Shown one piece after another: positions 2,841 to 61,448 of a DNA stretch of 64,000 bases. A program made the position numbers and the translations under genes. The notes under the pieces were generated by a model. It worked only from the letters and a program-made list of their open reading frames with translations, did no database searches and was not told where the DNA came from. This DNA comes from a virus: IMG/VR virus record IMGVR_UViG_3300044527_000814, positions 7,650 through 71,649 of that record, one strand, 5' to 3'. Positions within the stretch are counted from its first letter, which is position 1. Each line of letters starts with the position of its first letter.

Positions 2841-3572
2841 ATGTCGTACTCGTTTGCGCTCAGTGGTGGCAGTAGCGATGGCGCCCCTCGCAGGTTTGCC
2901 GCTGGTCAGCTCGTAACTGCGCGCTTCCAGCCCCTGGGCACGACGGCTGCCAACACGAATACCGTGAAGGCGCAGCTTGAAACGCGTATGGCGTCTCTGG
3001 GCATCTTCAAGACGCCGGAGTACGTTGGATGGGGTAAAGACGACAACAACGGGCTCTTTGTCTACAGGGCCGAACTCAAGACTGGGCAGTTCACGGCTCA
3101 GCAGGTCGCTGACAAGATCAAGGCAGCGATGCCTGGCCTCGATACTGCGCTCGGGGCAAAGCGCTTGAACTTCCTGACGATCCGTCACCCGACCCCAAGC
3201 GGCGAGGTCGTGGAGATGGTCCCAGAGGCGCCGTCTATCGCCCCAGACAGCACTTCGGGTGGCGGCGCGACGACAGGCGGCGGCGGCGCGACGACAGGCG
3301 GTGGCGGCGGCGGCGCCGCGCAAGAAGAAGAGAACTTCTTCACGAGGAAGTTCGGCGGCGTGCCGGTGTGGGCGATCGGCGCTCTATTGATGACGCTTGG
3401 CGGGGGGCTTGTGCTCTTCGCGCCGCGGAAGAAGCCTGCGTCGGTGGCGAAGAACCCACGGGACAGACTGCCGCTGCGGGACCGTTCGCGAATGAGGCGC
3501 CGTGGCCAGGAATTGAGGAAGGTGCCATGGGGGACCTTGGGGTACACTGTCGTGCCAGGAAAAAAAGGCTGA
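2841..3572 (+). CDS. tail-anchored virion protein (paralogous domain family A, Gly/Thr linker, TM, basic tail after AKNP)
   Basis: AGGAG RBS. VTARFQP...YVGWG motif shared with 10224 and 10886. EENFFTRKFGGVPVW precedes the TM. Confidence 0.8.
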   Translation: MSYSFALSGGSSDGAPRRFAAGQLVTARFQPLGTTAANTNTVKAQLETRMASLGIFKTPEYVGWGKDDNNGLFVYRAELKTGQFTAQQVADKIKAAMPGLDTALGAKRLNFLTIRHPTPSGEVVEMVPEAPSIAPDSTSGGGATTGGGGATTGGGGGGAAQEEENFFTRKFGGVPVWAIGALLMTLGGGLVLFAPRKKPASVAKNPRDRLPLRDRSRMRRRGQELRKVPWGTLGYTVVPGKKG

Positions 3573-3581
3573 GGATTGATC

Positions 3582-4478
3582 ATGACCTACCATCTCGGCA
3601 CAACCGCTGCACCAAAGACGTACGGCTACTGGCGTGTCGACGATCCCGCCACAGTCGCCAAGCTTCGCGAGGCAGGAATCGAGATTTCCGAGCTACCGGG
3701 CGCGGAAGACGCTATCGCAACGCGGACACCTTCGTTCGTTCTGGTCACGGATCCAGGTGGCGACCGCATTGCAGTTACGGCGCGTTCTAGCTGGGGGGTC
3801 AGGCCTGGATTCGTTTTTTCAGGAGGCGTTGCAGCATTCAGGGCAAAACTGGCCAAGACGTCGGACGTGCCTGTCGTGCCACCGGGAACCATCGACCGCC
3901 TGTCGTTACCAACTTCTGCCGATATCCCGCCGACCATCGGTGGGCCCGCGAGAGGAGCGGTCACTGTAGGTGGTCGCAAAGTCGGAGTGCCCGTCCCTGC
4001 CGACCAGGCATCGCTTCCGAGCAGTGACCGGCTCCAGGTTCCTGCCGTTCCAGAGCTTCCGCCCATCGTATTTGACCCGTCCCTTGAGCGCGCAATCGAT
4101 CGTGCTGTAGGTCGCAAGAGCAGCAATACAGGCCTGTACATCGGGCTGGGCGTTGCAGCGGTCGCGCTGTTCGGCCTTGGCTACTTGGCGATCAATCGTC
4201 AGAAGGCGCCGAAGCCGCTGACGAGTAATCGGCGCGTGATTTACGCCCTCCCCGAGCGCAAGGCGTACCCGATCACATCGCGCGAAGACGCCATCAACGC
4301 GACGAAGCGCTTGAAGCAAGGGCGTGTGCGGAGCGAGGCAGACGCGAATCTCATCATCGCGGCGATCGAGCGCGAGCACCATGACATCTGGCGCGAGTAC
4401 CTTGAGGGGTATCCCGTGTCGCGGATCATGAGGAGCAAGCGCAAGGGGCTGGCTGCGCGGCGAAGGACACTGAAGTGA
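3582..4478 (+). CDS. membrane protein with a small domain after LTSN and a basic C-terminus
   Basis: GAGGA RBS, MTYHLG start, TM LYIGLGVAAVALFGLGYLAI. Confidence 0.75.
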   Translation: MTYHLGTTAAPKTYGYWRVDDPATVAKLREAGIEISELPGAEDAIATRTPSFVLVTDPGGDRIAVTARSSWGVRPGFVFSGGVAAFRAKLAKTSDVPVVPPGTIDRLSLPTSADIPPTIGGPARGAVTVGGRKVGVPVPADQASLPSSDRLQVPAVPELPPIVFDPSLERAIDRAVGRKSSNTGLYIGLGVAAVALFGLGYLAINRQKAPKPLTSNRRVIYALPERKAYPITSREDAINATKRLKQGRVRSEADANLIIAAIEREHHDIWREYLEGYPVSRIMRSKRKGLAARRRTLK

Positions 4479-4687
4479 CGCCGCAGGAGCAATACTGGCA
4501 TCAGCGATCGGGCGGTGGATGGCGCGAGAACGCCGAGCAGGCGATCCTCGCGAACCCGTCGTACTTCGTTTGGTGGTACACCGCGAAGAGTCTCGCCCTC
4601 GTAGCCGCTGTCGCGTGGGGCACGTATCTGCTAGGGAAAAGTCACGGACGCCGCGCGGCAATGCGTTTGAGCAAAACAGGAGACTGA
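4475..4687 (+). CDS. small membrane protein, 70 aa
   Basis: GTGA overlap with upstream stop; one hydrophobic helix. Confidence 0.65.
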   Translation: MTPQEQYWHQRSGGGWRENAEQAILANPSYFVWWYTAKSLALVAAVAWGTYLLGKSHGRRAAMRLSKTGD

Positions 4688-4689
4688 GG

Positions 4690-5781
4690 ATGAGCTACAC
4701 AAACAGGGTCGCACTTCTGGGTGGTGGGTACGGGCTGGGATCAGACGTTGCGTCTGCCTCCAGCACGAGTGGGTGCAGCACGGCGGGCGTCTCGGGCATC
4801 GACGCTCAGCTCGTCGCTGAGATGATCCGACTGAGCGAGGGTAAGCTCGTCGAGGTCCGCCACCCAAACATCAAGTTCACCTCCAACCGCGTGCACCCGT
4901 ACCTGGCGGTCGCGGCTCGGGACGCGCTGCTGAAGGCGGCGGAGAGCGGAGAAATCCGCATCAACTCCGCGCTCCGCACCGTGGTGGACCAGTACATGCT
5001 CCACAAGGGCTGCCCTGGCGCGACAGTTCCGGGCGGCTCGAACCACGAGTCAGGAAAGGCCATCAACGTGAGCAACTGGCCCGATCGCCAGGGCGCGCTC
5101 CGTGCAGCTGGTTTCTCTCAGCCACTCGGCACGAACCAGGCCTACTTTGAGGTTCCTGGCGAGGACCTGCGCAAGCTGAGCGTGAAGGCGTTCCAGAACC
5201 TCTGGAACCTCAATAACCCGACCGACCAGATCGGTGCCGATGGAGTGGCGGGTCCTGCCACGCTCCAGCGCATTGCCAAGGCGCCCGTTGCTGGGTTCGC
5301 GAACTCGACGGTCGCCCCGGTCGCGCCAGTTGAGAACATGAGCATCGCGCCGCCCGCGCCCGGGGAGACTGAGAACCCAGTCGAGCCTCGCCGTGCCGCT
5401 CCTGCCGCCGCCGGTAATACGGGCAAGACTGTACTCATCACGCTCGCGAGTGTCGGTGTGGTCGCCGTTCTCATCAAGCTCGCCAGCCGGGGCGGTCGCG
5501 GCAAGACGCCTGCGCCGCGGCTTGCGCAAAACCGGAGCCGCAGTAGCGCGCCGCGTAGGAACCCGACCACCTACGTAGTTGAGCCTGAGTGCGCACATTG
5601 TGGTGCGCCCCTGGGCGAAGGCGTCACCGGAGTGCGCGAGATGCGCGAAGGCGACAAGCTCGGAGAACGCGGTCTAAACGACGACGAGATTCCCGAGAGA
5701 TTCCAGGACGCTGCGGCACATGCCCACCCTCGCCAGGCGATCAAGCGATGGGGCACTTGCAGGGACTGCCGGGACTACTGA
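4690..5781 (+). CDS. M15-like peptidase fold (apparently degenerate) + peptidoglycan-binding domain + TM + Cys-rich tail
   Basis: INSALRT...Q and SNHESGKAINV resemble the M15 SxHxxGxAxD motif. AFQ...ADGVAGPAT resembles PG_binding_1. TM, then RRNP and CxxC...CxxC. Confidence 0.7.
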   Translation: MSYTNRVALLGGGYGLGSDVASASSTSGCSTAGVSGIDAQLVAEMIRLSEGKLVEVRHPNIKFTSNRVHPYLAVAARDALLKAAESGEIRINSALRTVVDQYMLHKGCPGATVPGGSNHESGKAINVSNWPDRQGALRAAGFSQPLGTNQAYFEVPGEDLRKLSVKAFQNLWNLNNPTDQIGADGVAGPATLQRIAKAPVAGFANSTVAPVAPVENMSIAPPAPGETENPVEPRRAAPAAAGNTGKTVLITLASVGVVAVLIKLASRGGRGKTPAPRLAQNRSRSSAPRRNPTTYVVEPECAHCGAPLGEGVTGVREMREGDKLGERGLNDDEIPERFQDAAAHAHPRQAIKRWGTCRDCRDY

Positions 5782-5843
5782 TCTCTGTAAGAAAGCCGGA
5801 CCCGAGACAGGTCCACGCGCAACAAAGATCACAGGGAGCGACG

Positions 5844-7712
5844 ATGAGCTACAGCAATCGAGGCATGGGCGCGCTGTCGGGGAAGGGGTTCTCGACTTCG
5901 AAGGGCAGTTCTACGACTGTGGCGACCACCGGCACGACGACCTCCAAGTCGACTACGACGACGCCAGCCATCAAGACCACGACGGCGACGCCCGAGGTCC
6001 GGCTTAGCACTGCGCAGTCAACGGCCATGACGCTTGGGCCGATGCAGGCGGATCAGGCTGCGATCGACGCGAAGAAGGAAGCGGCGCGCGCCAAGGCAGC
6101 CGAGATCAACCGACTGTACGGTCGCAACAACGGCGCGAAGGCGGAGTCTGGTGCGAGGATTGCGGCGGCGGCTGAGCAGGCAGCTGCCGATCGGTCAGCT
6201 GCCGCGTCTTTCGCATCTGTCTTGGCTGCTGAGTGCACAGGGATCTTGGCGCGCGACGCGTCGCTGCCGAAGTGGGAGCCGCCACCTGCGCTCATTCCCG
6301 CGGGAGCGTTTGTAGCGTACGTCGCAGCGGTCGTGAAGTGGGACGATGCTGTGGCTGGGACTCAACCTTGGGTCAAGCTGCTCAGGAGCTTGCAGAACCC
6401 AGGCCCCGATTACCAGGCGCGCATCAACCGTGCTGCGGATAGCAAAACAGCATATGGAAAAGACCCGAGAAACTATAAACCAAACCCTTCAAATCCAGAA
6501 ACAGTAATCATTGACTTGGCGCCGTGGTTCAATACCCCTGACGGAAAGCTCTGGAAAGCAATAGCGGACGCCAACGAACCTGCCGTAAAAGGAACAGTGA
6601 ACGACCCAAAGGGTCGTGTGGCCTCCGTGTCTCCCATTTGGTTTCCGAGAGACGGAGACGCCAGTTCGCGCGGTGCAGTTGTGCTCGTTGTCTCTCTTAG
6701 CAAGGAGATGAACACAGAGGCGCTCACAGCATGGATGCAAGCGCACTATTCGCGCGCGATGTACGACAACAACATGGCGAAGGGCGGAGTGGTATATCCA
6801 ATCCCAGTTCTCCTTTCTGCCAAGTCCTGGGCTGACAAGGACGTGAACGCGCAGATCGCGGACGCCGTCGAGCGCGTGCGTCGCTCGCTGGGTCAGCTGG
6901 CGACTGCTTTCAAGGTCAACTTGCAGGGTGTCACGGCGCTCAAGAAGAAGCTCGACAACTCTGCGCTGAAGCTCGGGAAGGTGGTAGGCGAGATCCAGAC
7001 GGGCATCGCGACTGCGGCTGGCGTTCAAGCGTTTGTCGCGGAGGTCAGCGGCGGCGTGCCGTCGATGGTCGCGGAGCTTGATTCGCTGCCCGCTACTGTT
7101 ACCGAAATCGCTCAACTGGAAGGAGCGCGCGCGTCGTTGGCAAATGCTGCCAAGGCTATCGATGCGCTAGAGGCGAAGATTGCGAAGGATGCGGCGTCGA
7201 TTCAGCTTGCGATCTCCCGGGGGCCTACAATCGGTCAGGAGATGACCGCCTTGAAGGCTGAATACACTCCCGCCAAGGTTATTGCCATCGCCATGCCTGA
7301 GGCCGAGGCGCTGGCCAGTCGCGCCCCCTTTGCGGAACAGGCGGAGAGGGTGCGCTGCTCTGCAATGTCGATTTTGCAGCAGCAGGCAGGCAACGCGTTC
7401 GACGCTCTTCAGCGCGCCACGGCCTCGGCGGTTCAGATTTCCGCGACGCTCGACGTGCCAAGCCTGACGGCGTCGTTGGGCGCACTGGGCGGGCTCAGTA
7501 GCGCAGTCGCGGAGCTGCGCGCGGCGGTTGCCAGGGCGAGCGCTGCGCTCGACGCCAAAGAGAAGGAGCTTGGTCTCGACTGGTACTCGCGGAACTTCTA
7601 CGGCCTCCCTGTCTGGGCGTGGGGAGCCGGGGGCGCCGCGCTACTTCTCGGCGGTGCCGTCTTCGTCCGTATGCGCAAGAAGAAGGCTGCTGCGTCAGCC
7701 GCTGCGAAGTGA
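5844..7712 (+). CDS. large Ala-rich helical/coiled-coil protein with C-terminal TM
   Basis: GGGAG RBS, MSYSNRGMG start, heptad-like C-terminal half, FYGLPVW then TM and RKKK. Confidence 0.8.
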   Translation: MSYSNRGMGALSGKGFSTSKGSSTTVATTGTTTSKSTTTTPAIKTTTATPEVRLSTAQSTAMTLGPMQADQAAIDAKKEAARAKAAEINRLYGRNNGAKAESGARIAAAAEQAAADRSAAASFASVLAAECTGILARDASLPKWEPPPALIPAGAFVAYVAAVVKWDDAVAGTQPWVKLLRSLQNPGPDYQARINRAADSKTAYGKDPRNYKPNPSNPETVIIDLAPWFNTPDGKLWKAIADANEPAVKGTVNDPKGRVASVSPIWFPRDGDASSRGAVVLVVSLSKEMNTEALTAWMQAHYSRAMYDNNMAKGGVVYPIPVLLSAKSWADKDVNAQIADAVERVRRSLGQLATAFKVNLQGVTALKKKLDNSALKLGKVVGEIQTGIATAAGVQAFVAEVSGGVPSMVAELDSLPATVTEIAQLEGARASLANAAKAIDALEAKIAKDAASIQLAISRGPTIGQEMTALKAEYTPAKVIAIAMPEAEALASRAPFAEQAERVRCSAMSILQQQAGNAFDALQRATASAVQISATLDVPSLTASLGALGGLSSAVAELRAAVARASAALDAKEKELGLDWYSRNFYGLPVWAWGAGGAALLLGGAVFVRMRKKKAAASAAAK

Positions 7713-7726
7713 TAGGGTAACCGCCG

Positions 7727-8500
7727 ATGAACCAGCCATACGACCCCAACCAGTCGTCCGCGCAGTACCAAGGCCAGCCGCAGCTGTACCCGACGGTCCC
7801 GCAGGGGGCTCAGGTCCCGTATCAGCCTGCTTTCCATCAGGGACCGTACCCGTATCCGGCGGGGACCTACCCCATGGACATCGTGAGCCCGAACACCAAC
7901 CCTATGCCGTGGGCGGGGCCGTATCACGACCCCTCGGCGATGGGCGACGACGACGAGAACTTCCTGACCAAGAAGCTCGGCCCCCTGCCAGTGTGGGGAT
8001 GGGCACTTGTCGCGGCGGGCGCGGCGGGAGTTGTTGGCCTGGCTGCCTGGAAACTCGGCTTTCTAGGCAAGCAAGAAGGCAAGGGCCTCGCTAAAAACGA
8101 CGCAAGTGACTCAGGCGACGCCGACTCCGAAGACTCCGAGGACTCGGGAGAGTGGAGTCCTTCCCGTTCGGGGTTTGTTGAGGACATGAAGGCGAAGTTC
8201 TTCAATCTGCCACACAACAAGTCTCGGTTTAGCGGCGTGAGCATCTACGTCGACGCTGAAGACGCAATGAAAAAGGGAGGCATTAAGACGCCTTCCCCGC
8301 TGATCAATATGCGCGGGCCCAAGAGCGCCACGCTCGATCAGGAGCCTGTGCTGGTGGCGCTGTGCAGGGCTGAGGGCCTTGCGTTCAAGGAAAACGAGAT
8401 GGGTCCGGGTGTTTATGGGCTCCACCCGGACGATAGCGCGCGCGGTCGCCAGTGGGAAGACTACATCGACAGACTGCGTGATGACGGCCTTCCAGTTTGA
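7727..8500 (+). CDS. membrane protein with P/Q/Y-rich leader, central TM and C-terminal domain after LAKN
   Basis: ENFLTKKLGPLPVW precedes the TM. Confidence 0.75.
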   Translation: MNQPYDPNQSSAQYQGQPQLYPTVPQGAQVPYQPAFHQGPYPYPAGTYPMDIVSPNTNPMPWAGPYHDPSAMGDDDENFLTKKLGPLPVWGWALVAAGAAGVVGLAAWKLGFLGKQEGKGLAKNDASDSGDADSEDSEDSGEWSPSRSGFVEDMKAKFFNLPHNKSRFSGVSIYVDAEDAMKKGGIKTPSPLINMRGPKSATLDQEPVLVALCRAEGLAFKENEMGPGVYGLHPDDSARGRQWEDYIDRLRDDGLPV

Positions 8501-8525
8501 CGGTCTTCCGGCATAAGGAGAACAC

Positions 8526-9482
8526 ATGGCGTACTTCGGCGATCCCTCGCAAATCAAGATCATCAACTTCATCCCCGTTCAGACGCTCGGGAGCCCGAGG
8601 ACGTCTCCGGCGCTGCTCGGCTCCTATACGAGCCTTGGGAATACTGGCGCTGGGGCCGCACCGGCCGTCACGGTGCCGAAGATCGACGTCCAGCGTGCCC
8701 TGATTGGAGCTGGTAGGCTGGCCCCTACGCTGCCGAGTGGAAGGACCGCGGCCGACGGGGACTGGGGAGACAGAAGCAGGGCGGCTATGCGCGCGTTTGC
8801 CGACTCCCTGCCGGAGCCTGCGCGACTTTCGAGCGTGGCTTGGGGATCTGCGTCCTATCGCTCGCTGAACACTCAGAACATGTCTCTCCCGAGCGTGTGG
8901 GCTTCAGCTCTTAAGCTCGGCGGGCCTGCTGCTGCCTCGGGTGGCGGCGCGACGACCGGCGGCGCGACGACCGGTGGTGGTGCGACGACCGGCGGCGCGA
9001 CGACGGGCGGCAAGGTCCAGTCGCAGAGCGGCGCGACCACGGGCGGCGCGACGACGGGCGGCAAGGTCCAGTCGCAGAGCGGCGCGACCCCGGGCGGCGG
9101 CGCGGCTACGACTGGTGGCGGCGGAGCGAACGCTGGCGGCTTCCAGAAGCCCGGCTGGGCAGATGGTGGCGGCGGAGCGAACGCTGGCGGCTTCCAGAAG
9201 CCCGGCTGGGCAGATGGTGGCGGCGCAGCAACGACTGGCGGCGGCGCAGCAACGACTGGCGGCGGCGCAGCAACGACTGGCGGCGGCGCAGCAACGACTG
9301 GCGGCGGCGCGGCTACGACTGGTGGCGGTGGTAGCCCAGCCGCAGAGGAAGAGAACTTCCTCACGCGCAAATTCGGCGGTATTCCGGTTTGGGCGATCGG
9401 CACTGGATTGCTGGTTGCGGTTGGCACGGTTGCCGTGATCGTCAGCAAGCGGTCAGCAGGCGGTCGGCGGGCTGATATCTGA
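8526..9482 (+). CDS. peptidoglycan-binding domain protein with Gly/Thr repeat stalk and C-terminal TM
   Basis: AAGGAG RBS. VQRAL...ADGDWGDRSRAAM resembles PG_binding_1. EENFLTRKFGGIPVW precedes the TM. Confidence 0.8.
   Translation: MAYFGDPSQIKIINFIPVQTLGSPRTSPALLGSYTSLGNTGAGAAPAVTVPKIDVQRALIGAGRLAPTLPSGRTAADGDWGDRSRAAMRAFADSLPEPARLSSVAWGSASYRSLNTQNMSLPSVWASALKLGGPAAASGGGATTGGATTGGGATTGGATTGGKVQSQSGATTGGATTGGKVQSQSGATPGGGAATTGGGGANAGGFQKPGWADGGGGANAGGFQKPGWADGGGAATTGGGAATTGGGAATTGGGAATTGGGAATTGGGGSPAAEEENFLTRKFGGIPVWAIGTGLLVAVGTVAVIVSKRSAGGRRADI
8941..9330 (+). repeat. nested coding tandem repeats (GGATT, GGKVQSQS x2, GGGANAGGFQKPGWAD x2, GGGAATT x5)
   Basis: Direct read of DNA and translation. 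Confidence 0.9.
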
Positions 9483-9495
9483 CAGGAAGTATTTC

Positions 9496-10215
9496 ATGAC
9501 GTACCACAACACGGTTTCGGGTCTTTCTCTGTACGGCCTTGGCATGCAGGGCGCGAAGGACGAGAGTTCTGCTGGGCAGTCGTACGCGCCGACTAATCCA
9601 ACGATGAGCGTCCGCGAACTTCAGCGCCGTCTCATGGCAGCAGGTATGGATGTTGGCAGGACGGGCGCAGACAACGTGTGGGGCGAGCGCACCGAAAGGG
9701 CTCTCGCTACGTTTGCGACTCAAAAGGGCCTTCCGCTGCCTCCGCTTGGTATGCCTGGTAAGTATATCGTCAGCGGTTCCAGCGTGACGATTCCGGCCGC
9801 AGTGGCAGCAGCGCTGCCCGCCGCATCTGGCGGCAGCAGCGGTGGCCGCAGCAGCGGTGGCCGCAGCAGCGGTGGCCGCAGCAGCGGTGGCCGCAGCAGC
9901 GGTGGCCGCAGCAGCGGTGGCGGCAGCAGCGGTGGCGGCAGCGGTGACGGTGGCGGTGACGGTGGCGGCAGCAGCGGTGGCGGTGGTGGCAGTCAGCGCA
10001 GTGGTGACAGCCCCCGCCCTGCTCCAGATGTCGTGCCGGATGCTCCGGCGCCAGTTACTGCGGACTCCGATTACGGTGGCAGGGTCAGGGAAGAAACGAG
10101 CGAGCTTCCGTGGCCGTGGATTGGTGCGGGCTTGGGCGTGCTGGCCTTGCTCGGCGTCTGGTATTGGAACGAGCGTCAGGCTTCGGACCCGCTAAACAGC
10201 GAACGAGAGTTCTAG
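9496..10215 (+). CDS. peptidoglycan-binding domain protein with Ser/Gly stalk and C-terminal TM
   Basis: VRELQRRL...GADNVWGERTERAL; LYGLG motif; TM WPWIGAGLGVLALLGVWYW. Confidence 0.8.
   Translation: MTYHNTVSGLSLYGLGMQGAKDESSAGQSYAPTNPTMSVRELQRRLMAAGMDVGRTGADNVWGERTERALATFATQKGLPLPPLGMPGKYIVSGSSVTIPAAVAAALPAASGGSSGGRSSGGRSSGGRSSGGRSSGGRSSGGGSSGGGSGDGGGDGGGSSGGGGGSQRSGDSPRPAPDVVPDAPAPVTADSDYGGRVREETSELPWPWIGAGLGVLALLGVWYWNERQASDPLNSEREF
9841..9930 (+). repeat. 15-nt tandem repeat ggtggccgcagcagc (5 exact copies + 1 variant; GGRSS)
   Basis: Direct read. Confidence 0.9.
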
Positions 10216-10223
10216 GGGCTTCT

Positions 10224-10868
10224 ATGACGTACCATCACGCGCACGACTCGGCACACACGGTTCGGCTGCACGGACTCGGCGACCTATCTGCCGGTGACAA
10301 GATCACACTCCGGTTCCGTCCCGGCGCTGGTGTCAACCAGCGCAACGCGGTGCGTATTCTTGATGAGCTTCGGACTGCGCTGCTAGGTACGAACCATTTC
10401 ACCTCGCCGACCTACCTGGGATGGGGAACCGGAGGAACGCTCGTCTACAGGGGTTCTGTTCGTTCGGCGAACTACACGCTGCGGCAGGTTGCCAATATGA
10501 TGCCTGCGATTACGCTGCGTGTTGCCACTCGTGCTGGTCTGCCGGTCACGTTCCTGAGCGCACTCGATAGCGATGGCGACGAGCGCGTGGCCGAGCAGCC
10601 GGATGCTGCACCTCCTGGTGGATCGACTCCTGGCGGCGCGACGACCGGTGGTGGTGCGACCCCTGGCGGCGCGACCCCTGGCGGCGCTGCGACTCCAGGC
10701 GATGTCCCGGCGCCGGATCAGTCTGAGCCTTCGCGCGAAGGCGGCGGTTCGGAGCAGGGCGGCGGCGCGAAGAAGAGCATCATCCCTGTGGCGTTGATTA
10801 CACTGGCCTTTGGTGGCCTGGTTATTCTTTGGGGGACTCCGGCCCGTCGTGGTCGGTCTCGCGCGTAA
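10224..10868 (+). CDS. tail-anchored protein, paralogous domain family A
   Basis: MTYH start, LHGLGD motif, ITLRFRPG...YLGWG, C-terminal TM. Confidence 0.75.
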   Translation: MTYHHAHDSAHTVRLHGLGDLSAGDKITLRFRPGAGVNQRNAVRILDELRTALLGTNHFTSPTYLGWGTGGTLVYRGSVRSANYTLRQVANMMPAITLRVATRAGLPVTFLSALDSDGDERVAEQPDAAPPGGSTPGGATTGGGATPGGATPGGAATPGDVPAPDQSEPSREGGGSEQGGGAKKSIIPVALITLAFGGLVILWGTPARRGRSRA

Positions 10869-10885: not shown

Positions 10886-12028
10886 ATGTCGTACGCCAAT
10901 CGCACTGTTCTTCGTCGCTCGGTCGGATCCTTGTCGGGCATCAACGACAAGGTGGACCGCGGTGACGAGGTCACGCTCCGGTTTCAGCCGGGTGCTGGCG
11001 TCAACGCGTCTACCGGGCAGCGTGTGATCGACGCCTTGCGCACGGGCGTGCTGGGGACGAGGCACTTCGAAACGCCTAGCGTCGCGAGTTGGGGCTCAGG
11101 CACGAACCGCGGGATGCTCGTCATCAAGGCGGAGACGAGGTCCGACAATTACACGCTCCAGCAGATCGCGAACTTCATGCCGAACATCGCGCGCAACGCG
11201 TCGGCAAGTTCGGGTCTTCCCGTTACGTTTGCCAGCGCAAAAAACGAAGACGGAGACGAAGCGTTCGCGGCGGGGTCAAGAGGCCAGTCATCCGGTGGTG
11301 GAAGCTCGGCCCTGCCCATGATGGCGCAGATCATCGACATCCGTGTTCTATCTGCCACGAATCGAGCCCTGGCTCAGGCGATGAGCACAGAGCTTGCCCG
11401 ACGAATGCGGGAAATCCAAGTAGGCAACTACGACGGCTTGCTCAACAGCATTCGCAGCCTCGCGACGCGTTCGCTTACGGATTCGGCACCGATCACTGCT
11501 GTTCGAGATGCCGTGTATTACGGCATCAGGCAGCTTGATCGCCTTTCAACCGCGACGGAGCGGGCGGTTGACAAGACGCTCCGTGACAGGCGGGACCCAG
11601 GCTCGTTTGTCGACACGCCAAAGAACCGCGAGATCATCGCCGAGAGTCAACGTGGGCTTGGCCTCGCCGACCGGATTCGAGATGGGCTGTCCGCGATCTA
11701 TCGCGCCGTAGCTCCGGCCGAAGGCGTGCGCGGGCTCGGCGATCTCTCCTCGGCGCTGTACACCATGTCTCTTGGCCTACTTTTCAGCGGCCTTACAGGT
11801 GGCGTGTCGGTTCCTGTCGCCATGCTTGTCGCGCTGACCCAACTCTTCGGACTTGTGGACGAGGTTATCGAAGCGCTCAAGGCGATGGCGAATGTCGTTG
11901 TCGAGCCGGTTCAGGAAGCTGCTGCGGACTGGCTCAGGTTCGTGCTCATCGGCGGAACGGTCGCCGCCGCGGGGTACATCGGCTGGAAGCTGTGGATCAC
12001 GAAGAGGGCCGCGAGTAGGTTCGTCTGA
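10886..12028 (+). CDS. family A domain + helical region + two C-terminal hydrophobic segments
   Basis: VTLRFQPG...VASWG closely matches 10224. VRGLGD precedes a hydrophobic hairpin. Confidence 0.8.
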   Translation: MSYANRTVLRRSVGSLSGINDKVDRGDEVTLRFQPGAGVNASTGQRVIDALRTGVLGTRHFETPSVASWGSGTNRGMLVIKAETRSDNYTLQQIANFMPNIARNASASSGLPVTFASAKNEDGDEAFAAGSRGQSSGGGSSALPMMAQIIDIRVLSATNRALAQAMSTELARRMREIQVGNYDGLLNSIRSLATRSLTDSAPITAVRDAVYYGIRQLDRLSTATERAVDKTLRDRRDPGSFVDTPKNREIIAESQRGLGLADRIRDGLSAIYRAVAPAEGVRGLGDLSSALYTMSLGLLFSGLTGGVSVPVAMLVALTQLFGLVDEVIEALKAMANVVVEPVQEAAADWLRFVLIGGTVAAAGYIGWKLWITKRAASRFV

Positions 12029-16791: not shown

Positions 16792-17130
16792 ATGGCCCTC
16801 TATAGCGTCTGGGACTGGAACAAGAATCTCTACCGCGTCTACTCGGACGCGCTGCCGGTCTCTGTCGGCGTCGACCCGGACCCGCCGCGTCCGATGAATG
16901 TGCATCTGCTCGGTGCTGTGCCCTTCGAGGGGTGTAAGGTTCTCCCGCATGGCACGCGATTCATGGGCCTCTCGCACGTTCCGCGCGGTGAGATCGTACG
17001 GGATGCGAGCGGATTGCGAGAAGTCATGGGTCTCGGGTCAGAAGCGGGCGGGAGGACCGGGATCGGTTCTGTTGCCCTGGTCTGTGTCGGGCTTGCCGTA
17101 GGATACTTTGCAGGCAGGCTGATCTCATGA
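16792..17130 (+). CDS. small tail-anchored protein
   Basis: GAGG RBS; VMGLGS then TM. Confidence 0.7.
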   Translation: MALYSVWDWNKNLYRVYSDALPVSVGVDPDPPRPMNVHLLGAVPFEGCKVLPHGTRFMGLSHVPRGEIVRDASGLREVMGLGSEAGGRTGIGSVALVCVGLAVGYFAGRLIS

Positions 17131-48696: not shown

Positions 48697-49563
48697 TCAT
48701 CGCCTACTCGTCTTCCTACCGCGCGGCGTCCTGCGCACAGGGCGGCGGCTGGTGCGCCGCGGGTTCTTGTACATGTTCGGTTCCTGTGGATCGTACGCGC
48801 CGACGTTCTCGGTTGCGTGCTTGATCTGCCGCGGGTTGAATGCAGCCCAACTGCGACGCATGACCTCCTCGCCCGCATCAGCGTCCCAGTAACTGGCCGT
48901 AAAAAATATCCCGTCATACCCAGCCGCAGTAATTACAGGGAATGACGCCGACCCAGGCGCCTCATTGATGGCATCCTGTAACAAAGCGACGCGGTTTCGG
49001 CTGCTGTCTTGGAATCCTTGCCACCCCGAGCCGAGGATCTTTTTTGCAAGACGCGCCTGCGACGTGCCCGGGCGCAGTTCGGCGGTGGCATCCAGCGGAC
49101 GCTGGATCGACAGGTACACCGGAATGACGCGCTGGAACATGCGCGCCTTCGCGTCTTCCATTGCGGCTTTCTCCGCGTACTCGCCAGCCATTTCCACGGC
49201 CCTTCGGTCCGACTTGTACTTTCGCGGTGCGGACTGGGCTTTGCGAGACAGATCGCGCCAGCCAGCGTGCCCGAGCTTCATTGCTTCGGCGTCCATGGCC
49301 GCATTTGCGGCATCCACAGCCTTGTCATGAAATGAATCCGGATAGATCTCGAACGCGTGCTGCTTTGCGTGACCAAGATCTTCCGCGAACTGAATACCAA
49401 GAGGCATTTGTTGCCTGAAGTCCGGATACACTACGTTCTCGAACGCCGAGAACATTGGAGCCATAGTTCCGTGGTACACCACCAACGGCTCCCCGCTGGC
49501 GTCTACTACCTTGCTATGCCCAAACCATCTCCGAAATGCTGGATTGTCTGGCGGGCTCGGCAT
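48697..49563 (-). CDS. ADP-ribosyltransferase-like (polyvalent-protein ART type) with KNPRRTSRR tail
   Basis: AFRRWFG.SKVVD..GEPLVVYHGT, PVYLSIQRP, GYDGI, FNPRQIK...N.G; AGGAG RBS. Confidence 0.8.
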   Translation of the reverse strand: MPSPPDNPAFRRWFGHSKVVDASGEPLVVYHGTMAPMFSAFENVVYPDFRQQMPLGIQFAEDLGHAKQHAFEIYPDSFHDKAVDAANAAMDAEAMKLGHAGWRDLSRKAQSAPRKYKSDRRAVEMAGEYAEKAAMEDAKARMFQRVIPVYLSIQRPLDATAELRPGTSQARLAKKILGSGWQGFQDSSRNRVALLQDAINEAPGSASFPVITAAGYDGIFFTASYWDADAGEEVMRRSWAAFNPRQIKHATENVGAYDPQEPNMYKNPRRTSRRPVRRTPRGRKTSRR

Positions 49564-49634
49564 GTGTATTCTCCTGGAAGGCGCTCGTGGCGGCACTCGC
49601 CGCGCGCTGAACGTACCACAAACAGAAGGGGCCG

Positions 49635-50213
49635 ATGATGGGACACAAGCAGAGCCTGCGAACAATGAAGGCGGCGCACTGGAAGCTGATCTCCCTCGTC
49701 CGCCGCGAGAAGTACGCCGAAGCGCGCGAGCAGTTGAAGAAGATAGTCGGCGTCTCGATGCAGCTGACGAGCGACCTTCATGCCCTGGAACTTCGCTCGA
49801 ACGTCGACAAGTACTTCAAGGAGTCGAGGCTGCTCGGCGCTCCCGCCGAAACGAAGCGACCTTCGCGTGCGAAGGCGAAGCGGCCGTCCAAGGCCAAGCG
49901 ACCGGAAGCCGACTCGGCGACCACGGCCACCAACAAGCCGAAGCGCCGCTCGCCTCTCACGACGCGGGAGCAGGAGATCATCGCTGGCCTGACCAAGCAG
50001 GGGCGCTCGGTCCGAGAGATCAGTGCGGTGACCAAACGCAGCCCGAGCAGCGTGTGGGACTACCAGCAGCGCCTCAAAGAGACTGAGCGCACCGCACGCG
50101 CAGAGCGGGCATGGCTGACGCCCGAAGAGCGCGCCAAGTTCTGGATCGAGAAGCTGGGCATCGCCCCTCCGTGGCCCATCTCTACGCCGTCGCCCCAGGT
50201 CGCGTCGAGCTGA
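49635..50213 (+). CDS. HTH protein (copy B)
   Basis: Paralog of 48047. Confidence 0.8.
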   Translation: MMGHKQSLRTMKAAHWKLISLVRREKYAEAREQLKKIVGVSMQLTSDLHALELRSNVDKYFKESRLLGAPAETKRPSRAKAKRPSKAKRPEADSATTATNKPKRRSPLTTREQEIIAGLTKQGRSVREISAVTKRSPSSVWDYQQRLKETERTARAERAWLTPEERAKFWIEKLGIAPPWPISTPSPQVASS

Positions 50214-52638: not shown

Positions 52639-52640
52639 GG

Positions 52641-56049: not shown

Positions 56050-57135
56050 ATGACTGATCACATCAAAGTGGGGGGCGTCGGGTTGGTTCCAGCAACCAAC
56101 CTAGACGCCCTGCGCCGCTTCGGGCGGAACGACCCTGCGCGCCTGAAGATGCATCTGGAGTCGCTGGCCGCCTTCTTGGAGCAGCAGTCGAACCACACGA
56201 AGCGCGCGTACGCTTTTGCGCTGAAGCAGTTCTTCACGCTTCACGAGTGGACCTGCCCAGAGGACGTGAACGTCGCCCACGTCGCCGCCTGGAAGAAGCG
56301 CATGAAGACCGAGGGCAAGAGCGACGCGACCATCCAGGCGCGGCTTGCGGCCCTCACGAGCTACTTCAACTTCTTGATGCTCCCACATGGCGCCACCACC
56401 GAGCCGCTGGTTCGCGCCAACCCGGCGATGGCGATCACACGCGACGACGTGCGTGTGACGCCCTTCGGCCGGTCGCACATCCTCGACTGGGACAAGTTCA
56501 AGCGCATTCTCGACGCCCTCACCGGCGACGATGCGCGAACTGCCCGCGACCGCGCCATCTTGATCTTCTTCGCCTACACCGGACGCCGACGCTCCGAGGT
56601 CGCCAACCTGCGCATCGGAGACCTGCATCTTGAAGGGCAGGAGCGCTGGTACAAGGCCATGGTGAAGGGCCACAAGGAGCAGAAGTTCGAGCTGCCCGCG
56701 ATCGTCTACGAAGCGCTTGTGACCTACTGGAAGGCCGCGGGTCGATGGGGGAAGCTGCGACCGGAGCACGGCGTGTTCAGCGAGGCGAAGCCGAACATCA
56801 AACGCCGCATGCTCGGCATCGGTAAGAACGACCCCCTGAACGACGAGACGCTGCGACGCATCCTGATTGAGGCCGCGCATCGCGCCGGGATCGACAAGGA
56901 CCCCGACGTCCACCCGCACGCGATCCGTCACATGGTCGCGCGCGACATGCTCCGCGCAAAAGTCCCGCTCCAGGACATCCAGGATGCACTCGGACACGCG
57001 TCTCCGGCGACGACGCAGATCTATACAAAGCAGATCGGCGGCCAGCGCAGCGCACACGAAGACGCTCTGATCAGCGTTCGCGGCGGGGCCACGCCGACCA
57101 CGCCACAAGACCTCCAATCAGCACCCACGGAATGA
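56050..57135 (+). CDS. tyrosine recombinase (Xer/integrase family)
   Basis: RDRAIL...TGRRRSE, K, HAIRH, LGH...TTQIY. Confidence 0.95.
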   Translation: MTDHIKVGGVGLVPATNLDALRRFGRNDPARLKMHLESLAAFLEQQSNHTKRAYAFALKQFFTLHEWTCPEDVNVAHVAAWKKRMKTEGKSDATIQARLAALTSYFNFLMLPHGATTEPLVRANPAMAITRDDVRVTPFGRSHILDWDKFKRILDALTGDDARTARDRAILIFFAYTGRRRSEVANLRIGDLHLEGQERWYKAMVKGHKEQKFELPAIVYEALVTYWKAAGRWGKLRPEHGVFSEAKPNIKRRMLGIGKNDPLNDETLRRILIEAAHRAGIDKDPDVHPHAIRHMVARDMLRAKVPLQDIQDALGHASPATTQIYTKQIGGQRSAHEDALISVRGGATPTTPQDLQSAPTE

Positions 57136-57634
57136 CGGACGTGGACCCGGCGTTCGGCTTCGGGGCCTTTGATTTTGCGATTAGCTCCCGGATGAGCCCC
57201 TCAGAGTTTTTTAAGAGAGCTTTCAGTCCGTAGTGCAAAGGCTTCGGCATCTGGTCGAACTCGACCCACTTGTACTTGTCGTTCTCCCAGTTCATCTCAG
57301 GCTCGAACTCGGTCGGCACGACACCGATGAAGTTGTAGTACCGAAAGGTGCCCGACTCGTACACGTACGCCGGGTGCATCTCAACCGGCCCGAAGTAGTC
57401 AAGCTCTTCTTGAATCTCGCGACGCGTTGACTTCTCGGGGTCTTCGCCGCGGTCGATGGCACCCCCGGCTGTGCCCCATGTCAACGGCTCCATGACGTTG
57501 CGTGACCTCCGCAGCACGAGCAGGCGACCCGTGTCTCGGGCGAGGAGCAGCGCACCGGCGGCGCGCTTGCCCCAGAACACACGCCCGCCGCTGGTGAACG
57601 CCCCCTCGCGGTCTTCGGGATCATTCGGGATCAT
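57071..57634 (-). CDS. NUDIX hydrolase with hydrophobic C-terminus after KPN
   Basis: GGAIDRGEDPEKSTRREIQEEL Nudix box. Confidence 0.9.
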   Translation of the reverse strand: MIPNDPEDREGAFTSGGRVFWGKRAAGALLLARDTGRLLVLRRSRNVMEPLTWGTAGGAIDRGEDPEKSTRREIQEELDYFGPVEMHPAYVYESGTFRYYNFIGVVPTEFEPEMNWENDKYKWVEFDQMPKPLHYGLKALLKNSEGLIRELIAKSKAPKPNAGSTSVIPWVLIGGLVAWSAWPRRER

Positions 57635-58248
57635 GGCGACTTTCTCCAGTTTACAGACACCCACAGCGCAACCACGGCCAGGATTGACCACGGGAGAACC
57701 GATCCACCCAAATCACCACTGGCCTTTTGCGGCAATCTAGGAGACCCCCGTAGGTCATCCATCAAAGCGGCAGCCCACGCGCGATAGCCAGCGCGCGTGA
57801 AGTGCACGCCATCGGGCGCGTGCCCACCGAAGGTGTACAAGCGGCTGTCGATCCACTGCACGCCCATCTGCGGCAGAAAGCTACCCTGCCACGGCGCGAT
57901 ACGGTCTGCGCGCGCATCGATCTGCGGGTTCTTCGCGCTGGGCGGGCCGATCCAAACGATCGACCGCGCTCCTGATGCACGAATAGCGTCAACTACGGCG
58001 CGCAGTTGCTCAACGTATGCCTGTTGCCCCTGTGCTGCGTCATTGGTGCCCAGGATGACGATGACCATGTCGGGATGGGCCTCTGCGATGCGCGCCTTCC
58101 ACTCAGATTCGTTTCGGTAGCGCCCGGTGCTCCAGCCGACATTCGAAATGCGACCGGCTGGCTCCCACCCAAGGGCCTGCCCGCTCTCGAAGAGGAACGG
58201 ACCAAGCGTGGCGGAGTGAGAATCGCCGACGATGAAGACGCGTGCCAT
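57631..58248 (-). CDS. SGNH/GDSL hydrolase with C-terminal TM
   Basis: GDS, LGTND, DGVH. Confidence 0.9.
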   Translation of the reverse strand: MARVFIVGDSHSATLGPFLFESGQALGWEPAGRISNVGWSTGRYRNESEWKARIAEAHPDMVIVILGTNDAAQGQQAYVEQLRAVVDAIRASGARSIVWIGPPSAKNPQIDARADRIAPWQGSFLPQMGVQWIDSRLYTFGGHAPDGVHFTRAGYRAWAAALMDDLRGSPRLPQKASGDLGGSVLPWSILAVVALWVSVNWRKSP

Positions 58249-59658: not shown

Positions 59659-59918
59659 AGATCATCGAAATCATCTTGCGAGTCATCGAGCTTGCCCTTG
59701 ACGCGATTTCTGTCGCGACCCGCGGCGACGACGACACGCAAAACATCGTCCGCATCTTTAGGTCTACACACAAGGGCCTTGCCGACGCGCTGTCCGGCAC
59801 CGAAAGCGTCGAGGACATCTTCAAGAAGCCGCTGTCGGAGATCTGGGGCGGAGACCGGAACGCTCCGACGATCTATGAGGTTCGCAAGGCAGTCGTGAAG
59901 GCACGCGCGAGCGAGTAG
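59655..59918 (+). CDS. hypothetical protein
   Basis: GGAGG RBS + GTG, coupled. Confidence 0.55.
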   Translation: MKIIEIILRVIELALDAISVATRGDDDTQNIVRIFRSTHKGLADALSGTESVEDIFKKPLSEIWGGDRNAPTIYEVRKAVVKARASE

Positions 59919-59921
59919 GAC

Positions 59922-60596
59922 ATGAGCAATCACTCCGTGACAAAGCAGGAAGCCAGCGCGGCATGGGTTCAACTCGGGCGACCGAAGGTCAACCTTGAGC
60001 AGCTACGCCTTGGCATGGAGATCGAGCAGGAGCACACGGGCAGCCTGTACCGAGCCGCCGAGATCGCTCTCGACCACCTAGAGGAACTCGGCGACTACTA
60101 CACACGCCTCATCAAGATGGAGGAGAGGGCGCGCGCAGGGCTGCCTCCAAACCCTGTGCGAGCTAACCCGCAACAGATGACCTCCACCCAGGCATTCAAT
60201 AAGCTCTTCGTCGTACTTGACGAGCGGTTCCCCGACTTCGGCACCTTGACGCTGATCGAGGACGACGAGGCGCATGATGGCGGCAGGCACTACGCCTACT
60301 GCGCACACGATGGGAGCGAGATCGAGATCGCGTTCGCAAGCCACGCGAACGACCATCTTCGCCCTGAGCACATGGAAGCGATGATGGCCCACGAGATGGG
60401 CCACGCGCTCGACTACCGATACGGGAAAGACTTCTTGGAGGACGAGCTTGGCGTGGAGTTGTCCGGCGACGCCGAGCTACGCGCCGACCAGATCGCAGAG
60501 GAAGTCTTCGGGTTTCAGATCAGCTATGACCCGGACTACCGCTACGTGCAGACCAAGAACAGGGGCGTATACCCGAGGCCAAAGGGGCTGAAGTAG
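59922..60596 (+). CDS. DUF5661-like domain + PNP/ANP linker + HExxH zincin-like domain
   Basis: GMEIEQEHT...IALDHLEE..DYYTRL; AHEMGH...E..AD. Confidence 0.7.
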   Translation: MSNHSVTKQEASAAWVQLGRPKVNLEQLRLGMEIEQEHTGSLYRAAEIALDHLEELGDYYTRLIKMEERARAGLPPNPVRANPQQMTSTQAFNKLFVVLDERFPDFGTLTLIEDDEAHDGGRHYAYCAHDGSEIEIAFASHANDHLRPEHMEAMMAHEMGHALDYRYGKDFLEDELGVELSGDAELRADQIAEEVFGFQISYDPDYRYVQTKNRGVYPRPKGLK

Positions 60597-61057
60597 AGCA
60601 CCCCGTACACGGTGTAGGTCGCGCCAGGGTTACGGCGAATGGCGTATTTCTTCGGAAACCTGACGGTGGCCTTCGAGCCACCAGCGGCGCGCTTCTGAGC
60701 GACCCACTTGCGTGCCTTGGCTTTGGGGATCTTGGCAGCAATGCGCGCCGGACGGCACAGAGGGTATCCGCCGTCTCGCTTGCTCCTCCCACACGCCGCA
60801 TACCCACCACCCTTCAGTGGACGAGCAAGATCGACCCACTTCTCCGCGTACCACTTGGCGAGCGGCTTGCTGCCCTTCTTGCCCCGGAACTTGCCACCCT
60901 CTCGCTTGTACTGCTGAACCAGCTGACCGCTGGTGTACGCGTTCCATCGCGTGGTCTTGGCGCGCAGGCGCTCCTTGATGCGGCACCACAGCTTTGCGTT
61001 GACGACGTGCGCCGGAGCCTTGCACGCGCGCGACGTGCGCTTACCGCGTGACGCCAC
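60542..61057 (-). CDS. basic DUF5872-like protein with RTSR leader and RRNP
   Basis: SGQLVQQYKREGG...KWYAEKWVD...YPLCRP. Confidence 0.7.
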   Translation of the reverse strand: MASRGKRTSRACKAPAHVVNAKLWCRIKERLRAKTTRWNAYTSGQLVQQYKREGGKFRGKKGSKPLAKWYAEKWVDLARPLKGGGYAACGRSKRDGGYPLCRPARIAAKIPKAKARKWVAQKRAAGGSKATVRFPKKYAIRRNPGATYTVYGVLYFSPFGLGYTPLFLVCT

Positions 61058-61448
61058 GGAGGGACTCCTGGAGCCGTGCGATCACCCTGTCGCCAACCTC
61101 GCGCGCCTCTTCGGCCGCCTCGAAGTGCTTTCCGCCAAGAAGTCGGTTCCCACCTGGAATCCGCGCAAGAAGCTCGCTGATATCCAACGCATAGGTAACC
61201 GCCGCGCGCAGCCTGCCCTCGTTCAAAGCTTCGCGCGCCTTCTCGGTGGCCTCTTCAAGAGACGGCTCTCCGGTGTGAGCATACTGCCCGTACCCAAACA
61301 TCTGCGGGTTCTCGTGCATCGACCCCACGGTCTGCACGGCGCCCCGCGCGTATCTCATGACACGCGAACCGCTCACTACGCGCTGTTTCTGCTTCACTGC
61401 GCGCACAGCGCTCCGGGACGTCTTCCTCGCCAGAACCTTCTTGCCCAT
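61041..61448 (-). CDS. protein with basic RKTSR leader ending MHENP
   Basis: Basic leader followed by an acidic helical domain. Confidence 0.65.
   Translation of the reverse strand: MGKKVLARKTSRSAVRAVKQKQRVVSGSRVMRYARGAVQTVGSMHENPQMFGYGQYAHTGEPSLEEATEKAREALNEGRLRAAVTYALDISELLARIPGGNRLLGGKHFEAAEEAREVGDRVIARLQESLRGVTR

Follow-up and report, generated by a model that had tools for sequence, protein, structure and literature searches.

What purpose is served by a short basic peptide, centered on the dipeptide Thr-Ser, that recurs on proteins otherwise unrelated to one another? The question is raised by a 64,000-nucleotide stretch of viral DNA, referred to below as the window, which comprises bases 7650–71649 of the 71,649-bp IMG/VR record IMGVR_UViG_3300044527_000814. 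The original prediction held that Arg/Lys-rich extensions, often containing [RK]TS[RK], are joined to unrelated domains at an Asn or Asn-Pro, that they package effectors into the virus particle, and that an Asn-specific viral protease releases these at infection. The tag proves to be a real and portable (K/R)(K/R)TS(R/K) module, selected at the level of the protein and specific to one viral lineage. The case for the Asn junction is weaker than that for the Thr-Ser pair.

The record is approximately 51% complete and without terminal repeats (CheckV). With a GC content of ~0.63, the window has 394 open reading frames (ORFs) of at least 60 amino acids, and since high GC yields many spurious ORFs, genes were called by codon bias with a program of our own rather than a standard one. 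The resulting 88 genes, encoding 19,844 amino acids, are the basis of all protein counts; N-terminal tags hinge on the start codons chosen in these calls.

A Thr-Ser motif selected at the protein level

The motif [RK]TS[RK] occurs 20 times, in 10 of the 88 called proteins, whereas 300 shuffles gave 1.3 on average and never more than 6. One further copy (MARPRTSR) is gained if the HNH/AP2 gene starts at 27438. The sister patterns are near expectation in the same proteins, with one [RK]ST[RK], four copies with SS and two with TT. Such peptides could in principle arise from translation of off-frame or non-coding DNA that is high in GC and rich in Arg, Ser and Thr, or from chance of composition, and the GC content and the abundance of [RK][ST][ST][RK] in frames outside the called genes might seem to favor that explanation. 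In those frames, however, TS is no more frequent than ST (39 each) and SS is commoner (65), which confines the preference for TS to the coding frame. Tails are kept in orthologues despite different codons, and the controls of similar GC described below have no excess. On the in-frame counts and the motif-poor controls an artefact was rejected as scarcely credible. The Ser of the motif is coded by both TCN and AGY, and the underlying twelve-base words differ; selection therefore acts on the protein, and a repeat at the DNA level was ruled out as the source.

When the proteins of the record were pooled with those of three relatives (148 proteins), TS filled the two central positions of [RK]xx[RK] 58 times, where 3.0 were expected; GK came next with 15. 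A further basic residue precedes 37 of the 58 motifs, and 32 of them lie no more than 30 residues from a terminus, a zone that holds 24% of all residues. In an unbiased scan of k-mers, with low-complexity words of Gly and Thr set aside, RTSR (8 copies spread over 7 proteins; 0.39 expected) and KTSR ranked highest. The segments around the 58 motifs are dominated by Arg and Lys with interspersed Ser and Thr, a protamine-like or RS-like composition; Gln, Asp, Glu and His are depleted near the motifs. The tag is a lineage-specific short linear motif within disordered, protamine-like basic segments, and unrelated proteins have between one and three copies of it added at one end or the other.

All of the tails cited in the original prediction were found at the genes named, and its central observation, a basic Thr-Ser tag on unrelated domains, was borne out, the carriers including ART-PolyVal, PcfJ-like, HNH/AP2 and DUF5872 proteins. 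The GT4 glycosyltransferases, methyltransferases, integrase and sigma factor, which it had listed as untagged, have no motif at all. Tat signals and sortase-type sorting signals were also considered and rejected, as by eye no hydrophobic core follows the basic stretch.

Distribution among related viruses

Relatives were gathered with two queries, a 749-residue core-like protein (18339–20588), which has 12 metagenomic homologues, and the most conserved protein of the window (22451–23338), for which 207 homologues (E ≤ 0.001) turned up, the longest of their contigs reaching 114 kb. They comprise 13 metagenome loci, one locus in a metagenome-assembled genome (MAG) labelled uncultured Lentisphaeraceae, and 11 viral-contig loci of 9 to 298 kb. 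The group is one of widespread large bacterial viruses; complete relatives measure 150–171 kb, two of them with direct terminal repeats, and one relative reaches 298 kb. The 749-residue protein had no tblastn match in a phage collection, and viral-contig scans with it and with alignments A1 and A2 found no relatives.

Motifs were counted in eight of the 13 metagenome loci, L002, L004, L008, L009 and L011 being left out as short or apparent near-duplicates. Seven of the eight have 4–14 motifs against shuffle means of 0.2–0.5: L003 14 vs. 0.5, L005 4 vs. 0.2, L006 10 vs. 0.4, L007 7 vs. 0.2, L010 11 vs. 0.3, L012 10 vs. 0.4 and L013 14 vs. 0.4. The eighth, L014, has none, with 0.1 expected. The excess recurs in L015 (9 vs. 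0.5) and in contig C25 of the MAG relative G001 (12 vs. 0.5). Among more distant relatives, with ~50% identity in the conserved protein, the counts are 11 vs. 0.8 in L036, 14 vs. 0.4 in L037, 2 vs. 0.3 in L042, 4 vs. 0.4 in L043, 5 vs. 0.3 in L044 and 4 vs. 0.4 in L041, where the SS form stands at 11 vs. 0.9. Zeros for L034, with unusable gene calls, and for L035, where the calls missed the basic stretch within the core protein, are not valid and were left out of these counts. Two controls of similar GC behave differently: ten 20-kb pieces of other MAG contigs have 2 motifs against 2.1 expected in 60,180 amino acids, and the annotated genes of phage phiC31 have 1 against 0.5. The excess is specific to the virus group and is not seen in either control.

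Proteins that carry the tag

In the window the tag is N-terminal in the proteins at 27438, 30179, 60542 and 61041 and in the 749-residue protein, C-terminal in two PcfJ-like proteins and the ADP-ribosyltransferase, and internal in a protein of 1208 residues and one resembling histone H1. The largest carrier, the 1208-residue protein (12028–15654, + strand), has an N-terminal transmembrane helix followed by ...RRSLVANP, linkers rich in Lys, Ala and Pro, and a conserved C-terminus, ...KKTSKRRVTRNP. Its five motifs are at residues 476, 689, 879, 1046 and 1177. In an alignment of five orthologues the motifs, one to six per protein, fall in unconserved and unalignable linkers and their positions turn over, a behavior typical of short linear motifs in disordered regions. 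A 189-residue protein (17127–17696, +) has a basic head that ends ...GKSSRANP; the heads of its orthologues have RTSR or KTSR.

Two adjacent genes encode proteins that look like components of a nucleoprotein core. A Lys-rich, histone-H1-like protein of 170 residues (17820–18332, +) has two KTSK motifs, and its orthologues have 2–6 copies and end ...KTSRRGR or ...RTSRKGR. The 749-residue protein (18339–20588, +) begins with a basic segment followed by RTSR-G at residues 78–82, and farther on has KRGMKRNP-LGSDL, which includes N424-P425. Among the 12 sequences of this family R81, G82, N424 and P425 are invariant and 8 retain the TS; both the length and the sequence of the basic N-terminus are variable, and it ends R/K-T-S-R-G. 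In the distant relatives the H1-like and 749-residue proteins are fused into a single protein of 850–921 residues with long arrays of R/K and S/T, such as RRRTSKRTSRRRRSGRRRTSRR, KKSSKKSSKKSSRK and SRRHSRKSSRR. In L035 the array consists of the tandem unit SRRRRSRRTS[VM]RRN, with RTS[VM]RRN present four times. Judged by these arrays, the tag is a fragment of the same material that makes up the core-like basic proteins of the group. The 749-residue protein also has GEYVSQSLNG and TEVMAATAGLG repeats and an invariant C-terminus, ...TPEGRGYAGGIFGRHIFGTMV; distant relatives have several small paralogues (L036, 5990–7675) that end ...GYAGG(I/L)(F/Y)ARHLF(A/S)GM, as this protein does.

The N-terminal tags stand on diverse domains. 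An HNH/AP2 endonuclease-like protein (27438–28211, +) starts MARPRTSR when read from 27438, the codon-bias call having started at 27561, and has an internal ...PRLFENP; its L013 orthologue starts (V)MAKTSRKTSRRNP. A 172-residue protein (30179–30697, +) has the tag MMKRNRTSRSTTMRRN followed by an acidic domain, and its L013 orthologue starts MIMARKRRTSRGMRRN. The DUF5872 protein (60542–61057, – strand) begins (V/M)ASRGKRTSR, and late in its sequence ...AIRRNP precedes a hydrophobic C-terminus; the C25 orthologue starts VPRAKKTSR. Of three partial phage matches to DUF5872 by tblastn, the one examined, a partial homologue from a pelagiphage, has no tag. A 135-residue protein (61041–61448, –) begins MGKKVLARKTSRS..., with ...SMHENP at residues 44–48, and its C25 orthologue has ...RRKTSRG.

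At the C-terminus, PcfJ-like protein 1 (36246–37610, +) ends in the tail ...ALKPN-RRRTSRPSKSRRKTSRSKRKTSRS (nucleotides ~37536–37607), and its paralogue, PcfJ-like protein 2 (37613–39106, +), has an identical 29-residue end (nucleotides ~39032–39103). In the orthologues of G001:C25 and G003, (K/R)PN is retained and leads into a tail rich in TS. Both proteins score below the gathering cut-off of 25 bits for PF14284 (17.7 and 20.7), which indicates resemblance rather than membership. The ART-PolyVal protein, an ADP-ribosyltransferase-like (ART) protein (48697–49665, –), ends ...MYKNP-RRTSRRPVRRTPRGRKTSRR (nucleotides ~48700–48759). It scores 58.8 bits for PF18760 against a cut-off of 31.2, and the model stops at residue 290 of 322, leaving the tail outside. 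A homologue search gave six ART proteins, with 36–56% identity, all of them tailed with ...MYKNPR-(R/K)TSRR, one despite a different N-terminal fusion. The Pfam models of ART-PolyVal, Pentapeptide and DUF5872 all stop before, or start after, the tags. Two paralogous helix-turn-helix proteins (48047–48562 and 49635–50213, both +) flank the minus-strand ART gene, and both start MMGHKQ(N/S)LRTMKAAHWKL.

Two further window proteins have a basic character without the Thr-Ser pair. The pentapeptide-repeat protein (47317–47862, –) has the C-terminal tail ...PPELVAN-RRVAPRRKMSRSKSSKRK; the original prediction had counted it among the carriers, and the tail is indeed basic but has KMSRSK in place of a TS motif. 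A second Lys-rich, histone-like protein of 171 residues (28803–29318, +) also has no TS, and its orthologues end ...AKKTSR or ...KRRTSRN. Many small proteins of the relatives end in this manner, with ...AKKTSR, ...RRTSRS, ...RRRTSRH, ...KRKTSKR or ...KRRTSRN.

The placement of the tag bears on one further explanation, in which the basic tails would be translocation or ejection signals for a membrane conduit. Substrates of type IV secretion have positively charged C-terminal signals, and by analogy such a role is compatible with the C-terminal placement of tags, with their positive charge, with the many membrane proteins in the window, and with PcfJ and polyvalent-protein domains that conjugative elements also use. 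The tags, however, are also N-terminal, internal and in tandem arrays of core-like proteins, and the window of this half-complete record yielded neither type IV secretion components nor P-loop ATPases. The lack of a Walker A motif in a record ~51% complete means little, as the complete relative G003 has such proteins. A translocation signal is in our view very improbable.

Candidate enzymes and a possible function

The original prediction overlooked two genes that may bear on the fixed order of the Thr-Ser pair. The first (35112–35801, –) encodes a protein-kinase-like protein, which is a candidate for writing a Thr/Ser phospho-switch; its sequence shows a Gly-rich loop, Lys, Glu, D-x-H-x-x-N and D-x-G. 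It has 432 homologues at E ≤ 0.001, and in an alignment of 32 stand-alone members G43, G45, K59, D191, N196 and D209 are invariant and E66 is present in at least 90%. The protein alone had no significant match in the PDB (phmmer); the family profile, which was needed, matched 1321 PDB kinase sequences with a best E of 7.9e-9. Pfam assigns no family to the window's own protein, while 12 of the 32 members match Pkinase and one matches Kinase-PolyVal. Its motifs are those of the eukaryotic-like protein kinase superfamily. The gene is present in all five related virus records, with E about 1e-73 or better, and the protein is 72% identical in G001. The second gene (61502–62017, +) encodes a dual-specificity phosphatase with the CX5R motif CMMGMNRS, a candidate eraser. 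Its DSPc score of 41.2 bits exceeds the Pfam cut-off of 33.5, which places it in the family, and a counterpart occurs in four of the five related records, above the cut-off in two. As judged from these sequences, a protein-kinase-like gene and a Cys-phosphatase are both maintained in the lineage.

The explanation that we prefer, tentatively and with somewhat less than even confidence, is that the tag binds the genome or a nucleoprotein core, that tagged proteins travel with the DNA, and that the fixed T-S serves for recognition by an enzyme, the kinase and phosphatase being the simplest candidates. The basic module would bind viral DNA or the nucleoprotein core; tagged proteins would therefore co-condense with the genome, or stay on the DNA-facing side of a membrane, and be carried along. 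Binding of this kind is supported by the multi-copy motif in the H1-like protein, the Lys/Ala/Pro linkers of the 1208-residue protein and the arrays in distant relatives. The Thr-Ser pair would be an enzyme recognition site, and the kinase-like protein and the dual-specificity phosphatase are the likeliest candidates for switching binding on and off. With its preceding basic residue (37 of 58) the motif reads R/K-R/K-x-S, the classical consensus of basophilic kinases. This reading, a kinase-like protein with all catalytic residues and a DSPc phosphatase support a phospho-switch, and since the kinase-like gene is conserved and accompanied by the phosphatase, such a switch is at least as likely as proteolytic release. 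The Asn or Asn-Pro may mark the edge of the module, as a helix cap or a processing site; cleavage at Asn is possible but unsupported.

Several observations weigh against this explanation. Pure DNA binding leaves the strict preference for T-S over S-T, S-S and T-T unexplained. The complete but distant G003 (161.5 kb) has a weaker excess, 9 motifs against 2.3 expected. The strongest homologues of the kinase-like protein are mostly multi-domain proteins of 1000–2500 residues with 4–6 matched stretches each; because kinase homologues mostly sit in such giant proteins, and because one family member matches Kinase-PolyVal, the kinase and phosphatase are perhaps effectors directed at the host. Lastly, no capsid fold was established for this record, which is ~51% complete.

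The strict order of the pair would also be expected if another viral enzyme recognized it. The two GT4s, encoded at 32228–34635 and one of them with a weak GT4-conflict match, might O-glycosylate the pair, or the two ART-PolyVal-like proteins might ADP-ribosylate the flanking Arg or the Ser. Nothing ties the GT4s or ARTs to the tags, however; GT4s mostly act on sugars and lipids, and one ART is itself tagged. Modification by these enzymes is decidedly improbable.

If binding to the genome by the tag does carry enzymes into the particle, the motif would provide a transferable rule for which proteins reach the host, and a compact peptide by which foreign proteins could be loaded onto DNA. A T-S motif acted upon by a viral kinase and phosphatase would be a rare instance of phospho-regulated virion assembly in a bacterial virus. 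Whatever the mechanism, the motif is a sharp sequence marker of the virus group.

The asparagine junction

Asn is found at the edges of many tags in the window and its relatives, before C-terminal tails as (K/R)PN, KNP, VAN or QQNP and after N-terminal heads as MRRN, RRNP, RANP or KRNP. A similar arrangement follows the transmembrane helices of the proteins at 2841, 3582, 4690, 7727 and 12028, where a basic stretch leads to xxN(P). Three of these are membrane proteins of an 'MSY/MTY' type (2841–3572, 3582–4478 and 4690–5781, all +), in which a helix and a basic stretch are succeeded by the junction (...VAKNP, ...LTSN-RR and ...LAQN-RSR...RRNP, respectively) and a further C-terminal domain. Some sites are strictly conserved: N424-P425 of the 749-residue protein in 12 of 12 sequences, and the K-N-P-R of the ART in 6 of 6.

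These edges are the basis for a cargo-loading tag of the kind originally predicted, in which a viral protease cutting after Asn, approximately at hydrophobic-x-x-Asn followed by Pro or Arg, frees effectors and perhaps chops the tandem units into protamine-like peptides. ART-PolyVal, PcfJ-like and pentapeptide proteins are among the carriers and are of a kind predicted to travel with invading DNA, and ARTs like Alt of T4 enter the particle and are injected (PMC5512222). The Asn-Pro sites invariant in orthologues fit a cut, TS and [VM]RRN form one tandem unit in L035, and a possible protease adjoins two tagged genes. This protein (59922–60596, +) combines DUF5661 with a zincin-like HExxH motif (HEMGH), and its match to Peptidase_M91 (E 0.013) is below the cut-off. 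It and a gene that lies upstream of the window and has a weak transglutaminase-like match are the only protease candidates, and no Asn-specific protease was identified among the encoded proteins.

The test for enrichment against shuffled sequences, proposed along with the original prediction, gave a divided answer. The pattern [LIVM]..NP is 2.1- to 3.6-fold above expectation in four family sets (z 3.0–4.5), but not in either control (MAG 1.25-fold, phiC31 0.8-fold), and [RK]NP is 3- to 5-fold above expectation. Plain NP is in excess in the called proteins (59 vs. 33.8), which seemed specific to the lineage when set against the MAG control, but phiC31 has a like excess (31 vs. 18.6), and it is absent in distant relatives. 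At sharp boundaries between basic and non-basic sequence Asn occurs in 28 of 1195 cases (2.3%), only 1.5-fold above its overall frequency of 1.5%. Within 10 residues of the motif its frequency, 3.0%, equals the background of 2.9%; other basic-rich windows have 1.9%. The Asn junction is therefore confirmed in part, by the conserved individual sites and the excess of [LIVM]xxNP.

The list of junctions had been chosen by eye under a loose definition, and some of its members fail. IRRNP of the protein at 60542, MRINP and MIPN are not boundaries of tags. In the NUDIX protein (57071–57691, –), recognized by a regular expression for the Nudix box and by its translation, ...KAPKPN joins the catalytic domain to a C-terminal transmembrane anchor rather than to a basic tail. 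Asn-Pro at the start of a helix is, moreover, a common N-cap arrangement, so that conserved Asn-Pro before a helix could be quite ordinary. An N-glycosylation sequon was also considered and rejected, as by eye the Asn is seldom followed by x-S/T. Cargo loading coupled to an Asn-specific protease we regard as unlikely, although the idea of cargo overlaps with core binding and is, by analogy, plausible for the ART, PcfJ-like and pentapeptide proteins. The [RK]TS[RK] motif itself was rejected as a protease site: it is an unlikely place for a cut because many copies lie at extreme C-termini (...KTSR, ...RTSRS, ...KTSKR), because the H1-like proteins have 2–6 of them in tandem, and because their positions turn over between orthologues.

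A combination of the two proposals may be considered, in which Asn-bounded units are cut at their edges. Large bacterial viruses (150–300 kb) would then load many enzymes onto the genome by means of a protamine-like tag under the control of a kinase and phosphatase, and release the cargo by Asn-specific processing, perhaps also freeing 14-residue DNA-condensing peptides from the tandem arrays. Such a system, which is quite unlikely in our estimation, would give bacterial viruses an equivalent of the core of adenoviruses or baculoviruses together with a cargo tag like that of T4.

Comparison with known systems

Each element of the preferred explanation, in which a tag bound to the genome is controlled by phosphorylation, is known singly: basic Ser/Thr-rich tails that bind nucleic acids, core proteins under phospho-control, and portable packaging tags. 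A search of the literature found no description of a strict T-S motif on at least ten unrelated proteins in a lineage of bacterial viruses that also has a kinase and phosphatase, and for the strings RTSR, KTSR, RKTSR and RRTSR there was no viral motif among the matches listed.

Among viral core proteins the nearest likeness is to baculovirus P6.9, in which Arg/Ser/Thr-rich basic segments condense the genome of a virus that encodes phosphoryl-transfer enzymes. The hepatitis B core C-terminal domain and adenovirus VII and mu are other protamine-like viral core proteins under phospho-control. For P6.9, site-specific dephosphorylation is reported as a requirement for genome encapsidation (PMC5899202). 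The present tag differs in being a strict motif of four to five residues with a fixed T-S order, carried by at least ten different proteins including enzymes, in a virus with a bacterial host; the kinase-like and dual-specificity enzymes of the window are unrelated to those of baculoviruses.

The T4 capsid targeting sequence, which brings internal proteins and Alt into the particle for delivery with the DNA, and the prohead protease gp21 provide a second parallel: a short, portable terminal peptide on unrelated proteins, an ADP-ribosyltransferase among them, with a consensus site at the boundary of the tag. In T4 the tag is confined to the N-terminus, has no basic T-S motif and is removed by a cut after Glu, whereas the tags described here are found at both ends, internally and in arrays. 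The HK97-fold head, portal, terminase and prohead serine protease that characterize T4-type viruses had no counterpart among the ten proteins searched against PHROGs, which gave no named family, and Terminase_6N was absent from all four records searched, three of which are at least 90% complete.

With the polyvalent proteins the window has in common ART-PolyVal, a kinase family of which one member matches Kinase-PolyVal, and zincin-like peptidases. Such proteins, found in phages and conjugative elements, are predicted to accompany the invading DNA and in some cases to be processed (PMC5512222, the main text of which has no occurrence of PcfJ). Those are domains fused into a giant polypeptide, whereas here separate proteins have each their own basic tag. 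The cargo-loading peptides of encapsulins are likewise short, terminal and common to unrelated enzymes. Being hydrophobic or rich in Gly, they attach to the shell protein, in contrast to the poly-basic tags of the window, which resemble DNA binders. Finally, asparagine peptide lyases, which are proteins of virions or of export systems (reovirus mu1; FlhB/YscU, NPTH), undergo autocleavage after Asn, often before Pro, and need no separate protease. In these the Asn is activated by specific folds, whereas the Asn considered here lies in or beside disordered basic segments.

The virus group and other features of the window

Apart from the tag carriers, the families recognized in the window by Pfam include the two GT4s and a tyrosine integrase as well as the second, weak ART-like protein. 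Also encoded are two M23 peptidases, an amidase, an MT-A70 protein, an S-adenosylmethionine (SAM) methyltransferase, the sigma factor and a GDSL/SGNH hydrolase. Most of the large window proteins have no Pfam family, the ten proteins searched against PHROGs gave two weak unnamed matches, and the ESM Atlas returned unnamed viral clusters only.

The three most conserved genes, which also have the highest GC at third codon positions (21548, 22451 and 23417), match no family. An AlphaFold model of the 22451 protein built from 3 sequences had a predicted local distance difference test (pLDDT) score of 32.8, and one built from 36 sequences, with a score of 67.3, has a beta-sandwich behind a long helix. 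This model had no match in the PDB at E ≤ 0.001 and one match with a low template modelling score in BFVD, and no claim of a capsid fold is made for it.

In the MAG labelled uncultured Lentisphaeraceae, two contigs or more (among them one of 31 and one of 33 kb) belong to a near relative whose proteins are 92–96% identical, the integrase on the second contig being 96% identical. This may be a hint of the host or an artefact of binning.

The gene of a highly conserved structural candidate (20738–22216, +) is split. Its first exon (MPKIVGTRERVHQP) ends near 20779 and the second begins near 21530; the insert of ~750 nucleotides has a LAGLIDADG-type ORF (LAGIIDGEG at 20882) and a match to a group I intron at 21240–21496 (RF00028, E 2e-5, with 30.1 bits where the gathering score is 50). 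The same gap is present in L015, and the gene is uninterrupted in L003 and L013. In the window and its relatives the split candidate and the 1208-residue protein at 12028 have a common N-terminal heptapeptide, MPKIVG(Y/T).

Fifteen of the 88 called proteins start Met-(Ser/Thr/Ala)-Tyr (MSY 9, MTY 5, MAY 1), compared to 2 of 113 in the control MAG, and MSY is the second most enriched tripeptide. Their genes lie at 2448–10868, 29748–30182, 31337–31834, 35846–36217, 39103–39834 (–) and 62642–63409 (–), with two upstream of the window; the two M23 peptidases are included. A transmembrane helix was read in all 15, near the C-terminus in 12 by a crude scan and, by eye, before a further domain in those at 3582, 4690 and 31337. 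The Met-(Ser/Thr/Ala)-Tyr start may serve membrane proteins as a second signal, located at the N-terminus. In several MSY proteins (2841–3572, 8526–9482, 9496–10215 and 10224–10868) low-complexity arrays of Gly, Thr and Ser (GGATTGG..., SSGGR...) precede the conserved pre-anchor sequence EENF(F/L)T(R/K)KFGG(I/V)PVWA; the arrays could be targets for glycosylation by the two GT4s.

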